Below, piece by piece: positions 1,614 through 36,237 of a DNA stretch of 64,000 nucleotides (position 1 is the first letter of the stretch; every line of letters starts with the position of its first letter). Both the position numbers and the translations under genes were made by a program. This stretch comes from a virus: positions 19,144 through 83,143 of the IMG/VR virus record IMGVR_UViG_3300032236_001727. One strand, given 5' to 3'. The notes beneath the pieces are model-generated. The model made no database searches and was not told the DNA's origin. It was given only the letters and a program-made list of their open reading frames with translations.

Positions 1614-1687
1614 ACCTTGGTGTCAATCATAGTTTGGTACCGGGAGCGGGAATCGAACCCGCACGGCCTTTTGGGCCAAGAGATTTT

Positions 1688-2370
1688 CTTACTACTATAG
1701 TTTTCACTACCACTGAACGTGTTTGTAGTCTGGACTATACCTTCACCATACTTTCGTTTAGGTGTTCCGTGTCTAGTCTCTACACCTTCTTCATTTCTGA
1801 AGCTTGGCTCGGTATTACCATTTTAAAGGCTTCACCGAATTTACGGAATTCTACTCCTTAAATTTCTCTAAGGGCACTCAAATTTTGTTTGTTCCTACCA
1901 GCATAAGTAGTTGTTTGTGAATGGCAATTAGGGCATAAAAATCTTAAATTTTCTATTCTATGGTCCCCATTGATTCCATTTATATGATCTAGATGAAGTG
2001 AAATACTCATATTATTCCATTCATTTATACCACATATAGAACACTTATATTCAATTAAACCATTTTTAATTATTTCTTTTCTTACTGAACATCTAGAAGC
2101 ATAATCTTCTATATGTGTTATACGCTTACTAATATTTTTATTTAATCCCTTTCCTGATTGGTTGGGTTTATAACAATCATATTTTAAAGCATATTTTTTG
2201 AAAGAATTAAAATGTAAATTTAATTTAGCAGCAGCTCTAGCCATAGAAGGCTCAGTGTTGCATACTTCTATAAAGTATTCTTTACTTATGCTAGTTATTT
2301 TTTTCATATCTATCAGTTTTATGTATTTACCCATAAATATGAAAAAATTTCAAAGAACTAAAACTCTCTC
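1688..2370 (-). mobile_element. Group I intron (IC3-like) in the tRNA-Leu anticodon, carrying an HNH ORF
   Basis: P1 AGACUU-GAGA-GAGUUU with U-G at the 5' splice site; P AAATTCGGTGAA, Q AATACCGAGCC, R GTAGAGACTAG, S AAGGTATAGTCC; P3 TTCCGT/ACGGAA; terminal omega-G at 1688. Confidence 0.93.
1858..2334 (-). CDS. Intron-encoded HNH homing endonuclease (start may be Met at 2307)
   Basis: CSICG...LHLDHING..GDHRIENLRFLCPNCHSQT HNH/Zn motif; N-terminal HTH-like segment. Confidence 0.92.
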   Translation of the reverse strand: MGKYIKLIDMKKITSISKEYFIEVCNTEPSMARAAAKLNLHFNSFKKYALKYDCYKPNQSGKGLNKNISKRITHIEDYASRCSVRKEIIKNGLIEYKCSICGINEWNNMSISLHLDHINGINGDHRIENLRFLCPNCHSQTTTYAGRNKQNLSALREI

Positions 2371-2447
2371 AAGTCTCTCATGTCTACCTTTTCATCACCC
2401 CGGCATAAAAAAGATGCTGCAGTCATCTTTTTCTCGTTTTCTGTGTT

Positions 2448-5094: not shown

Positions 5095-5397
5095 TTAATA
5101 TAAGTCTTCTGAGAATAATTCGTCTGTTGAGTAATTCAGTTCACCTCCATTTTCTATATGTAATTTAGCGGCTTCCTCTCTATTCAAAAATCTATTGGCA
5201 GAGGTCAAAAAGCCTTGAACACTTTTGCCCATTTCGTGTTGTTTTTTGCCAAGTAAAGAAGCGCATTGACCGATTATATGATTATGCCTATGACCGCATA
5301 AAACCGTTCCTGAGCTGATGTTTTTCACCTTATACGGATATTCCATAGGATAATCTAAATAGTGAATAGCGGCACATAATATTTTTTCTTTAGACAT
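5095..5397 (-). CDS. Conserved hypothetical phage protein (CAAI..GHRH..QGFLTS..RF..REEA)
   Basis: 100-aa ORF with a recurring phage motif pattern. Confidence 0.75.
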   Translation of the reverse strand: MSKEKILCAAIHYLDYPMEYPYKVKNISSGTVLCGHRHNHIIGQCASLLGKKQHEMGKSVQGFLTSANRFLNREEAAKLHIENGGELNYSTDELFSEDLY

Positions 5398-5399
5398 AA

Positions 5400-5672
5400 T
5401 TAAAATTTTTTAGAAAAGTTAATAAAATAATCTTCTTCTTCAGAAGTTAATCTATCTCTACTAGAAAATATTTTTAAAAGAGCTGCAAAAAGCTCAGTAT
5501 CCATAAGAGTTGGATTTTTATAGACTGGGAGAGAAAATTCGTTTGCAAATTCTACTAAAGGATTTTCGTTATCAAAATCATCTTTTAATAAACGATACAT
5601 CTCTTTTTTCTCATAAGTAGACATTTCATAATATATGTCTTGCACACTTAAATCAATATCGAAATTTGGCAT
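5400..5672 (-). CDS. Hypothetical protein
   Basis: 90-aa ORF, tight packing. Confidence 0.65.
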   Translation of the reverse strand: MPNFDIDLSVQDIYYEMSTYEKKEMYRLLKDDFDNENPLVEFANEFSLPVYKNPTLMDTELFAALLKIFSSRDRLTSEEEDYFINFSKKF

Positions 5673-6509: not shown

Positions 6510-6585
6510 GGATTTAAGAAAGGATTTGAACCTTTACCTCGCGCCTTCTAGTCAGCCCTTATGCTACCGTTACACCACTTAAATC
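6510..6585 (-). tRNA. tRNA-like element with a non-pairing anticodon arm (identity undetermined)
   Basis: GATTTAAG/CTTAAATC acceptor, D-arm TGGTGTAACGGTAGCAT, T-arm AAAGG-TTCAAAT-CCTTT; anticodon region AGGGCTGACTAGAAGGCGCG forms no 5-bp stem; no CCA. Confidence 0.65.
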
Positions 6586-7001: not shown

Positions 7002-7080
7002 TTAGCATGACAGGATTTGAACCTGTGACCTCCGCCTTGTAAATGGATGGCGGCACTCTACCAGACTGAGCTACATGCTA
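7002..7080 (-). tRNA. tRNA-Val(UAC)-like RNA with a 12-nt anticodon loop
   Basis: TAGCATG/CATGCTA acceptor, GCTC/GAGT D-stem, CCGCC/GGCGG anticodon stem around ATCCATTTACAA, ACAGG-TTCAAAT-CCTGT T-arm; no CCA. Confidence 0.8.
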
Positions 7081-34389: not shown

Positions 34390-36237
34390 TTATAAAAATT
34401 CTTCATTTATTATCTTATTTGCATGTTTTATTGTTTCTTGAATAGCTCGCTGGCCAAATGTAGTTACTGCTGAAGAAAGAATTTTATGGCCATCTGTAAA
34501 GCGCCAAGAATTGATGGCAAAAGCACCATAAATACTGTTAAGGGCTATTTTGAAAGAGTGTTGTTTCATGTGGAATAGTTCCCCCTTCACCTTATCTCCA
34601 TCTTTATAAGCTTTTTTCATAGCATTTTTAAACTCTTTTCTCATATTAAACCACTCAGCTAGTAATTCAGCAACTATACTAGGCTTATCTGTTGAAAAAA
34701 TCACTCCATTAGCGGATACTGTCCAATTATTTTCAATAATTGTTTCTATAAGATCTTTAATTTTTATTTTTCCAGATTTTAAGGTATATGTTCTTTTATC
34801 TAGTTTTTCTAATGTTACTATTTTTTCAGGGTCTTCTTCTCTTAGCTCTTCTAAACTATACCAACAGTTATAATTTGGGTTGTCTATAACAATCCTAGCT
34901 TTTAATGTTTCTATTCCTAAATTTAATGATCGTATGATTGAAGGATACAAACTAGCAAAGTCGGCATTTATACTCCAGTTATGTAATCCTACTTGAGGAT
35001 CTAAAAGAAATCCACCAGCATATCCTTCTTTTTTTCTAACAGATTTTAAAAATCTAGTTATGAAAGCACCTCCTTTGGTTTTAACAATAACTTGTTTATT
35101 ATCAATTTCATGTACTGTTCCCTCTATAGTAGGTGTTCCTCTTTGGTGTACTACATAATCTCCAACTTCTAATTCTCTTATAGATGGATTAACTGTTGTA
35201 GGTTTGTTAGGGGCTATAATGTTTTTTCTCTTAAGGTAAGTAAGTATAGCACCTTCATTTAATTCAGTGTTATAGTATATTGATTCATAAGGTGTATGAC
35301 ATAGATGTGATATTAGAACAGTTAGTTCAATAAATTTCAATTTATTTTCTAATGCTTCTAATATTTCAACATCTCGTATGTTATACTCTATAAATTTGTT
35401 CTTATTTTCTTTAAATAAGGCATCCAAAGAGCCATTATATTCTATTTTACCTAATTTAACATATTTGGTTCCTATATCTCCTAATTTGTATGATGTTTCC
35501 TCTTTAGTAATATACTTTTTAAATAAAAGCATAAAATCAAGACAATTAATCAAACCTATTTTTATAGGAGATTTAGAATTGTTTAGGTCTTCTGTTATTT
35601 TACCTATAGGGGATAATCTATATACTTCATCACCCATTATCTTTTTTATCCTATAATATAGATATGGCATATCAAAAAAATCACTATTCCAACCTACAAC
35701 AATAGTAGGATCTATTTCTTCCCATTTGCTTAAAAAATTTCTTATTAATGTTTTTTCATCAATACAAGAAATGATATGTTTATTTTCTATAGATATAGAC
35801 TCTATTTCTTTATTTTTATCTAGAATAAAACATATAGTTTGCTTATTATTTACATCTAGTAAAGCAATAGAAGTTATTTCAGCTTTAGCTTCTTTAATAG
35901 TGTATTCATTTAAAGCGCCTATAATTTCAATTTCTATATCTAGATAAACCAGATTATGAAATGAAGGTTTATCATCACTCTTGTAATATTGGTCTCTAAG
36001 TAGTACCAACTCTTTAGAAATATCTTTTTCATATATCGTGGGGTCATTTCTATCATATTTTCCAGTTATTGGGGAACAACGATCTCCAAACAATGTTGTA
36101 TATTCACCATATTGATCTAATTTATATAATGTTGGATTATATTTGAATTTAGAAATGTGTTTCTTATCATCACGTAAGAAGTAATGATAAGCATCTGGAT
36201 CGTTTTTGTCTCGGACATAATAAAGAGCTTGATACAT
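34390..36237 (-). CDS. DNA polymerase family B, N-terminal part (3'-5' exonuclease, motifs A and B)
   Basis: DIEIE, WNSDFFDMPY, YNIRDV, DFASLYPSII, KIALNSIYG. Confidence 0.95.
   Translation of the reverse strand: MYQALYYVRDKNDPDAYHYFLRDDKKHISKFKYNPTLYKLDQYGEYTTLFGDRCSPITGKYDRNDPTIYEKDISKELVLLRDQYYKSDDKPSFHNLVYLDIEIEIIGALNEYTIKEAKAEITSIALLDVNNKQTICFILDKNKEIESISIENKHIISCIDEKTLIRNFLSKWEEIDPTIVVGWNSDFFDMPYLYYRIKKIMGDEVYRLSPIGKITEDLNNSKSPIKIGLINCLDFMLLFKKYITKEETSYKLGDIGTKYVKLGKIEYNGSLDALFKENKNKFIEYNIRDVEILEALENKLKFIELTVLISHLCHTPYESIYYNTELNEGAILTYLKRKNIIAPNKPTTVNPSIRELEVGDYVVHQRGTPTIEGTVHEIDNKQVIVKTKGGAFITRFLKSVRKKEGYAGGFLLDPQVGLHNWSINADFASLYPSIIRSLNLGIETLKARIVIDNPNYNCWYSLEELREEDPEKIVTLEKLDKRTYTLKSGKIKIKDLIETIIENNWTVSANGVIFSTDKPSIVAELLAEWFNMRKEFKNAMKKAYKDGDKVKGELFHMKQHSFKIALNSIYGAFAINSWRFTDGHKILSSAVTTFGQRAIQETIKHANKIINEEFL

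Follow-up and report, generated by a model that had tools for sequence, protein, structure and literature searches.

We analyzed a 64,000-nt stretch of viral DNA (the window), which is the last 64 kb of the linear 83,143-bp IMG/VR virus record IMGVR_UViG_3300032236_001727 (CheckV, ~51% complete; GC content, 29.4%). On its minus strand, a tRNA-Leu(UAA) gene is split into two exons by a 683-nt insert that has the core of a group I intron and carries an intact open reading frame (ORF) for an HNH endonuclease. The parts of the locus are listed below in the 5'-to-3' direction of the gene.

2404-2371, minus strand, 34 nt: 5' exon of tRNA-Leu(UAA), comprising the acceptor, D arm and 5' anticodon stem through U34 (ARAGORN and reading of the sequence)
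2378-2352, minus strand: local stem capped by a GAGA loop at the 5' splice site, named P1 by the first-pass annotation (computed free energy, -4.6 kcal/mol)
2370-1688, minus strand, 683 nt: group I intron between U34 and A35, ending in AAG, with omega-G at 1688 (ARAGORN, Rfam)
2363-1889, minus strand, 475 nt: HNH cassette, including a leader of ~55 nt (blastn against the free-standing cassette of contig L134)
2307-1858, minus strand: HNH ORF from the conserved ATG, 149 amino acids plus stop (Pfam, PHROG; start shared with L134)
1882-1876, minus strand: conserved internal guide sequence TTTGAGT (aligned with the guide of ORF-less relatives)
1873-1856, minus strand: P2, 7 bp with a GAAA loop, whose 3' strand (1862-1856) holds the ORF stop codon (all pairs covary)
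1848-1691, minus strand: catalytic core (covariation and minimum free energy fold)
1687-1635, minus strand, 53 nt: 3' exon from A35 onward, comprising the long variable arm, T arm, acceptor and encoded CCA (ARAGORN)

Detection of the split gene

The first-pass annotation, which was made from the letters of the window without database searches, had proposed a tRNA-Leu(UAA) gene interrupted after U34 by an insert ending in omega-G. ARAGORN returned exactly this gene in two modes, once from exons joined by script and once from the unjoined DNA with the intron option, as an 87-nt type II tRNA-Leu(taa) with the insert at 34-35 (gactt-intron-aaaat). The cloverleaf of the joined exons is a flawless type II structure with CCA. 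Under default settings, ARAGORN called no gene at this site, as had been anticipated for standard tRNA scans, and an Rfam scan of the whole window at gathering thresholds found nothing at the intron. A narrow Rfam scan matched Intron_gpI (RF00028) at 1898-1713 on the minus strand with 50.5 bits (E = 1.4e-11; gathering score, 50). The same family scored 56.6 bits in a related phage record, LR756501 (L001), in a narrow scan and gave nothing when three relatives (L001 to L003) were scanned together. The speed filters of Rfam drop such tRNA introns, which score 50 to 57 bits in narrow scans, once more than a few kilobases are searched; since the intron is found by narrow scans, the misses are filter effects and not absence. 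Routine annotation by default tRNA and Rfam scans would miss such genes, and phage tRNA repertoires are therefore under-counted.

The codon TTA accounts for 809 of the 1652 leucine codons (49%) in the 63 long ORFs of the record, so a tRNA with a UAA anticodon is of use to this phage. The split gene is the sole tRNA-Leu that ARAGORN calls in the 83 kb of this roughly half-complete record.

Ribozyme fold and the position of the ORF

Helices P2 to P9 were drawn on the window, and their pairs were then counted over an alignment (A2) of 59 rows running from the guide sequence to the 3' exon. Besides the window, the rows comprise 11 ORF-bearing copies from viral contigs and 47 distinct pre-tRNA-Leu(taa) sequences that lack the ORF, of which 45 come from viral contigs and two from GenBank phage records (LR756501 and Atu_ph07, the latter L002); sliding of the 3' partners by 1 to 3 columns and 500 shuffles served as controls. 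The window aligns throughout with the 47 ORF-less copies. Standard pairs fill 94.1% of the 2975 cells, compared to 29 to 42% in the slid controls, both-sided changes occur in 35 of 52 pairs, and none of the 500 shuffles reached the observed values on any of five measures. Covariation is complete in P2 (7/7 pairs), P3 (6/6) and the GAAA-capped P9 hairpin (5/5), and one P7 pair is switched from A-U to U-A in 16 of the 59 rows (43:16). The minimum free energy fold of the window core alone recovers P2, P3, P4, P5, P6a and P8. The core helices have the following positions.

1848-1843/1770-1765, minus strand: P3
1839-1834/1813-1808, minus strand: P4
1830-1828/1819-1817, minus strand: P5
1807-1799/1792-1785, minus strand: P6 and P6a
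1778-1774/1737-1733, minus strand: P7
1764-1761/1747-1744, minus strand: P8
1729-1725/1695-1691, minus strand: P9, enclosing two hairpins, of which the second has a GAAA loop

The group I core that the letters had suggested is thus borne out by the RF00028 match and by covariation: the conserved helices P3 to P9, including the P3/P7 pseudoknot, are present, U34 (2371) can pair as a U-G wobble with G1879, and the last base of the intron is G1688. GAAA loops are found in L2 and in the inner P9 hairpin, and an internal loop of P8 (CCUAA...UAUGG-like) may resemble a tetraloop receptor. P5 is a 3-bp hairpin without a P5abc extension. The subgroup label IC3 is the one that the literature gives to this intron family, and for the window copy it is putative. 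The first-pass annotation had equated the insertion site with that of the cyanobacterial and plastid tRNA-Leu(UAA) intron, and for the site this is correct. The bacterial and plastid intron sits at the same place (CUU/intron/AAAA), with U at -1 and G at omega, and the bacterial introns have a homologous core with a shared 19-nt P6/P7 motif and a small P5. According to the accessible text of Williams 2020 (10.1101/2020.01.27.920355), a survey of bacterial and archaeal genomes only, this site is Leu.3Ug, the class of the classical Nostoc intron. The window copy differs from the bacterial and plastid intron in lying in a phage and in having a 475-nt HNH cassette in L1, and the cassette also sets it apart from the 47 aligned ORF-less viral copies, whose introns measure 185 to 300 nt.

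The anticodon loop is unusual in every tRNA-shaped gene that ARAGORN calls in the 83-kb record, and the split gene might, like the others, be something other than a working tRNA gene, namely, a disrupted pseudogene or a tRNA-like decoy that is never spliced. Such a reading is very improbable given the perfect cloverleaf of the joined exons, an intron core that keeps every conserved helix, and the retention of the same arrangement at ~60% nucleotide identity in 7 other contigs, which implies selection on the exons together with the ribozyme.

The conserved guide TTTGAGT lies after the ORF. It aligns column for column with the guide just before P2 in ORF-less introns, such as those of a 735-kb uncultured phage and of Atu_ph07, and its T, G, A and G are each found in at least 90% of the 59 rows, in ORF-less and ORF-bearing relatives alike. 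Its GAGT (1879-1876) pairs with the exon ACTT in a duplex whose energy was computed, with the U34-G1879 wobble at the splice site. The working P1 is most likely formed by exon ACUU and the first intron bases paired with this distal guide, and because the guide follows the ORF, the HNH ORF is placed in loop L1, not between P1 and P2 or the core as initially described. Alternatively, P1 might be formed by the local GAGA-loop hairpin, with the ORF in a J1/2 linker of ~490 nt. This hairpin does exist; it offers a U-G pair at the splice site, its computed stability slightly exceeds that of the distal pairing (-4.6 versus -3.7 kcal/mol), and it would form first during transcription. It has no counterpart in any of the 7 aligned ORF-bearing homologues, however, whereas the distal GAGT aligns with the guide that directly precedes P2 in the ORF-less relatives. 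Furthermore, the 3' strand of the hairpin is partly cassette DNA common to L134, which argues that the hairpin arose from the insertion junction. As the energies of the two candidates are close, the choice between them was made by conservation, and we consider it improbable that the local hairpin is P1; it is peculiar to this window and may act as an alternative or competing pairing.

The HNH cassette and its free-standing, adjacent and intronic relatives

The ORF had been described as intact. It matches Pfam HNH PF01844 (E = 5.7e-6; 26.8 bits against a cut-off of 21.4) and phrog_10822 (E = 5.9e-34), with sub-threshold HNH-domain matches only in NCBIfam, and neither frameshifts nor internal stops interrupt it. 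In a 28-row family alignment (A3), the protein keeps all 13 invariant columns, including both CxxC pairs and the motif His, Asn and His, so that the HNH motif and the Cys4 zinc site (C89, C92, H108, N120, C125, C128 and H129) are intact. An in-frame ATG upstream at 2334 would give 158 amino acids (2334-1858); the start shared with the closest homologue is the ATG at 2307. The stop codon TAA (1860-1858) falls within the 3' strand of P2, as the first-pass annotation had stated, and the last 9 to 10 codons run through the guide and P2.

A search of viral contigs with the HNH protein found at least 588 relatives, of which the best 80 were kept. The closest of these is L134, with 69% protein identity; in this phage contig, which is unrelated to the window, a free-standing HNH gene is separated by 3 nt from the intron-less tRNA-Leu(taa) that follows it. 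By blastn, positions 642-1107 of L134 align with window positions 2363-1889 at 74.8% nucleotide identity over 477 nt, including the ~55-nt leader before the shared ATG, and the rest of the 3.1-kb L134 locus contains nothing similar to the window. The homology begins 7 nt past the 5' splice site and stops just before the guide sequence. An entire gene cassette has thus been inserted into L1 or removed from it. The window cassette lacks the stop codon of L134, and its tail of 9 to 10 residues is therefore read from P2.

This loss of its own stop, with a tail drawn from the guide and P2, would suit a fixed relic in which either splicing persists or the gene is dead, the HNH protein is inactive and nothing is currently mobile, as would the absence from the window clade of a segment of ~12 residues present in most relatives. 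The gap is common to L134, L135 and L139, however, and so is a clade trait and not decay. The intact invariant HNH and Cys4 positions, the undamaged frame and the coexistence of intron-plus and intron-minus alleles with ~97% flank identity in one study, described next, likewise make a relic decidedly improbable.

The contigs of four sequencing runs were compared with the window. The whole stretch is contained in one run only, probably the source sample. Run X2, from the study that also yielded the source sample, is of a kind marked "DNA?", a guess. One of its contigs (3003 nt; depth, 43) passes straight from 2371 to 1687 and thus skips exactly 683 nt; this contig differs from the window at 6 of 230 nt along 2600-2371 and at 2 of 51 nt along 1687-1637, and beyond 1637 it is unlike the window. 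Presence and absence of the element at one site, between flanks that are ~97% identical, is therefore seen in a run whose kind was guessed to be DNA. Since X2 is most likely DNA by that guess, its contig is probably the intron-less allele in a phage ~97% identical. Searches of the sequence collections found no syntenic relative, and the intron-less allele is known only from run contigs. Two other runs, X4 and X8, yielded conserved-core or HNH parts only, at 85 to 95% identity, and these pieces probably come from other organisms. The potential mobility suggested at the outset gains support from the contig without exactly 683 nt and from the free-standing cassette in an unrelated phage.

To place the intron within its family, the 19-nt P6/P7 core motif of the window was scanned in viral contigs (at least 120 loci) and in one genome per prokaryote species (at least 120 loci). 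Among the viral motif loci listed, ARAGORN with the intron option called 60 intron-bearing tRNA-Leu(taa) genes, with introns mostly of 185 to 300 nt, 22 genes of other isotypes and no tRNA in 38; for two of the other isotypes (L044 and L073) the call is mistaken, as both have the Leu arrangement. Seven of the viral motif loci listed have an HNH ORF in L1, at ~60% nucleotide identity to the window. On the bacterial side, 63 of the 121 motif matches listed lie in intron-bearing tRNA-Leu(taa) genes, with Alpha- and Betaproteobacteria, Acidobacteriota and Nitrospirota among the hosts, and 17 lie in tRNA-Met(cat) genes. ORF-less copies of the tRNA-Leu intron are common in viral contigs, and the ORF-in-L1 arrangement is not a one-off, as it is present in the window and at least 11 other viral contigs.

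Several members of the family deserve a record of their own. The cultured Agrobacterium phage Atu_ph07 (MF403008.1; L002, 1459-1820) has a tRNA-Leu(taa) with a 278-nt ORF-less intron that is unannotated in its record, where a "hypothetical protein" coding sequence is drawn across the 3' exon. In Pelagibacter phage HTVC120P (L003; MH598807.1, 19433-20607), two coding sequences, both annotated "capsid protein," flank the same intron core, with 78.8% identity over 153 nt, so the intron family also interrupts a phage capsid gene. Nine rows of A2 (L015, L036, L056, L087, L099, L102, L107, L110 and L115) have the same intron and a UAA anticodon with a short variable arm, which is the type I tRNA shape and not leucine-like; ARAGORN names them Leu(taa) from the anticodon. 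A 5.4-kb contig of a metagenome-assembled genome named Arcicella sp. (Bacteroidota; L250) contains a tRNA-Leu(taa) with a 739-nt intron and is possibly a phage fragment.

The relatives of the endonuclease were arranged in a tree of 88 rows, 78 of them distinct (IQ-TREE quick search, LG+G4), with state labels assigned manually. The window and L134 are sisters with an SH-aLRT support of 97. By these manual classes, 29 rows (22 + 4 + 3) lie beside tRNA-Leu(UAA) and 13 are intronic; parsimony requires 6 changes for the intronic rows, at least 3 of them on well-supported branches. A free-standing HNH gene stands beside an intron-less tRNA-Leu(UAA) at 22 loci and beside an ORF-less intron copy at four (L143, L150, L174 and L209), and an HNH homologue lies no more than 1.5 kb from 15 of the 47 distinct ORF-less copies, mostly within ~100 nt. 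A tRNA gene lies within 120 nt of the HNH gene, or encloses it, in 55 of the 80 loci, and it is Leu(taa) in 28 of these 55, against a background of 41 Leu(taa) among the 435 tRNA calls across the same loci. The ribozyme core of the window is 89% identical to that of L151, compared to 56% nucleotide and ~40% protein identity between their HNH regions; the histories of ribozyme and ORF are separate. The arrangement expected under collaborative homing, with a free-standing HNH gene by the target gene and ORF-less introns at the same site elsewhere, is seen in these relatives and not in the window itself.

The family also reaches cultured T4-like phages: in Aeromonas phage avDM5 (L334, 601-1119) and Edwardsiella phage PEi26 (L335, 508-1138), an unannotated HNH ORF of the same family abuts an intron-less tRNA-Leu(taa). 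Larger relatives of ~265 to 300 amino acids lie inside tRNA gaps of ~955 to 1000 nt (L146, L160, L164 to L166, L170, L177, L181 and L186), mostly in loci from IMG sample 3300045988, and ARAGORN calls the gapped tRNAs Ser(cga), Lys(ctt), Leu(caa) and Pyl(cta). Gaps of ~980 nt with the 300-amino-acid relatives were considered as group I introns and rejected, as RF00028 had no match in L146, L160 or L164; the HNH-bearing gaps could be another intron type or ARAGORN artefacts.

A proposed composite selfish element and its meaning

Taken together, we read the locus as a phage tRNA-Leu(UAA) gene that would harbor a composite selfish element, made of a self-splicing-type group I intron of the tRNA-Leu family and an HNH homing-endonuclease cassette in its loop L1, and we assign this reading a probability of about 0.78. 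The element is genuine and well formed, is probably active or recently active, and probably shows how such an intron becomes mobile. Splicing activity, endonuclease activity with its target site, and the direction of events are inferred, and the mechanism that we propose is as follows. After transcription of the pre-tRNA, exon ACUU would pair with the guide GAGU beyond the ORF to form P1 with its U-G wobble, the P2-P9 core would fold, and GTP-initiated splicing would remove the 683 nt to leave tRNA-Leu(UAA). The HNH protein, made from a cassette that brought its own leader, would nick or cut the tRNA-Leu(UAA) DNA of co-infecting phages without the element, and repair from the intron-bearing copy would convert the recipient. 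In its own genome the intron would split the target site and still keep the tRNA usable.

Several observations weigh against this view. The sole RNA run compared, X8, gave no sign of splicing, only two short contigs on the conserved core that are probably from other organisms. If X2 were RNA as well, its joint would be evidence of splicing and not of an allele without the intron; either way the contig supports the split gene, although the two claims differ. The RF00028 score is just 0.5 bits over the gathering score, and a PDB sequence search with the HNH protein gave no matches. The distal P1 has four exon and three intron pairs, and by the computed energies the competing local hairpin could trap the 5' splice site. 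Searches of IMG/VR found no close relative of this phage that could show synteny. Finally, the tRNA-Leu genes without an intron that stand beside a free-standing HNH gene keep the ordinary CTTAAAA loop in 11 of 18 distinct cases, so that no immunity signature is apparent in these loops at the insertion site.

The last point would also suit an endonuclease whose target lies off the insertion site. In that case the HNH gene would in effect be free-standing, would have landed harmlessly in L1 and would cut elsewhere, in the tRNA gene or its flanks, and the intron would move by co-conversion only. Most HNH relatives are indeed free-standing, with 29 tree rows beside tRNA-Leu(UAA) against 13 intronic ones, the cassette carries its own leader, and trans homing by T4 MobE offers a precedent in the accessible part of PMC2790892. 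On the other hand, L1 of this intron has received the ORF on at least 3 separate occasions, and the strong preference for tRNA-Leu(UAA) suggests a target in or at that gene. The presence or absence of intron and ORF as one precise unit fits both this alternative and homing at the insertion site. We regard cutting elsewhere as unlikely, though with a real chance of being right, and retain the composite homing element as the preferred reading.

The surroundings of the gene add the following. The closest isolate by NrdA is Flavobacterium phage vB_FspM_immuto (60.7% identity), which has no counterpart of the split tRNA-Leu gene (best E value, 0.009). Because the host assignment depends on the NrdA identity alone, the "probable Bacteroidota phage" of the first-pass annotation becomes a phage for which a Bacteroidota host is plausible rather than shown. 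Searches of viral contigs with the exact 34-nt 5' exon gave no matches, and the neighboring 203-amino-acid protein has no relatives by search. A sigma-70 promoter scan found 6 sites where 7.4 were expected, and a 13-nt leader motif matched 21 times against 18.3 expected; with both counts near expectation, there is no promoter evidence for the tRNA or the HNH gene. The terminator scan called nothing. A terminator-like hairpin of 6 bp followed by a T run (2407-2429, minus strand) ends ~3 nt before the first tRNA base and went uncalled because it has only 2 G-C pairs. Two tRNA-like genes on the minus strand have good acceptor, D and T arms and an enlarged anticodon loop: one at 7002-7080 (57.6 bits, Rfam tRNA), with a four-base anticodon, attt, in ARAGORN or read as Val(tac) with a 5-nt insert if introns are allowed, and one at 6511-6584 (39.8 bits, Rfam tRNA), which ARAGORN reads as Ser(aga) with a 3-nt insert. 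Outside the window, at record positions 5260-5414, ARAGORN with the intron option reports a "tRNA-Asn(gtt)" with a 74-nt insert. The 615-amino-acid DNA polymerase ORF at 34390-36237 (minus strand) matches only positions 11-564 of an 856-position PHROG profile; a split polymerase is possible.

The tRNA-Leu(UAA) intron is the textbook ancient intron of bacteria and plastids, usually described as ORF-less and vertically inherited. For one gene, the loci described here present all three stages of the collaborative homing model, with the endonuclease free-standing, beside an ORF-less intron and inside the intron. The published cases concern protein-coding genes (psbA of cyanophages and nrd of T4-like phages) and other endonuclease families; here the putative target is a tRNA gene. 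Other HNH genes within phage group I introns are those for I-HmuI (SPO1), I-TevIII (nrdB intron of the T-even phages) and I-PfoP3I (named in PMC2790892 and PMC3428280); these enzymes presumably nick or cut intron-less alleles, and their introns interrupt protein-coding genes. T4 SegB is a homing endonuclease whose free-standing gene is similarly lodged among phage tRNA genes, and according to PMC2330249 it cleaves inside tRNA genes and drives the tRNA region's inheritance. It differs from the window family in being a GIY-YIG enzyme with no intron link that targets a T-loop motif of many tRNAs, whereas the HNH family keeps mainly to tRNA-Leu(UAA).

According to a 2014 review (PMC3984707), all phage introns then known lie in protein-coding genes and none in a tRNA gene, although phages carry many of these. 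Our search of the later literature, which took in main texts, found no description of a group I intron in a phage tRNA gene, though phage entries may stand in the tables of Williams 2020, in the Selles Vidal 2025 database or among the 2513 Jug-phage introns of PMC12880540; nor is one mentioned in the accessible parts of PMC3706429, 10.1101/2021.08.26.457843, PMC7824862, PMC11835236 and PMC13096335.

The main value of the locus lies in the segregating intron-less allele together with the series of free-standing, adjacent and intronic endonuclease copies. It offers a candidate route for the horizontal spread of the tRNA-Leu(UAA) intron and a testable natural series from a free-standing endonuclease to a mobile intron. 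Bench work is feasible, since cultured phages represent related states: Atu_ph07 has the ORF-less intron, and avDM5 and PEi26 have the free-standing HNH gene.

A broader reading, which we hold only tentatively and at somewhat less than even odds, is that the tRNA-Leu(UAA) genes of phage tRNA arrays are a widespread battleground of a two-part selfish system, in which the HNH gene would hop repeatedly between a free-standing position and L1, and the intron would act as an immunity that keeps the tRNA gene uncut and yet functional. If so, the window would be a recently completed fusion, one of at least 3 independent ones, and with its free-standing and ORF-less relatives it would make up a series found in nature that still segregates and shows how a mobile group I intron is put together. 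Phages, and not only bacteria and plastids, would then be of major importance both as reservoir and as vehicle for the classical tRNA-Leu intron.

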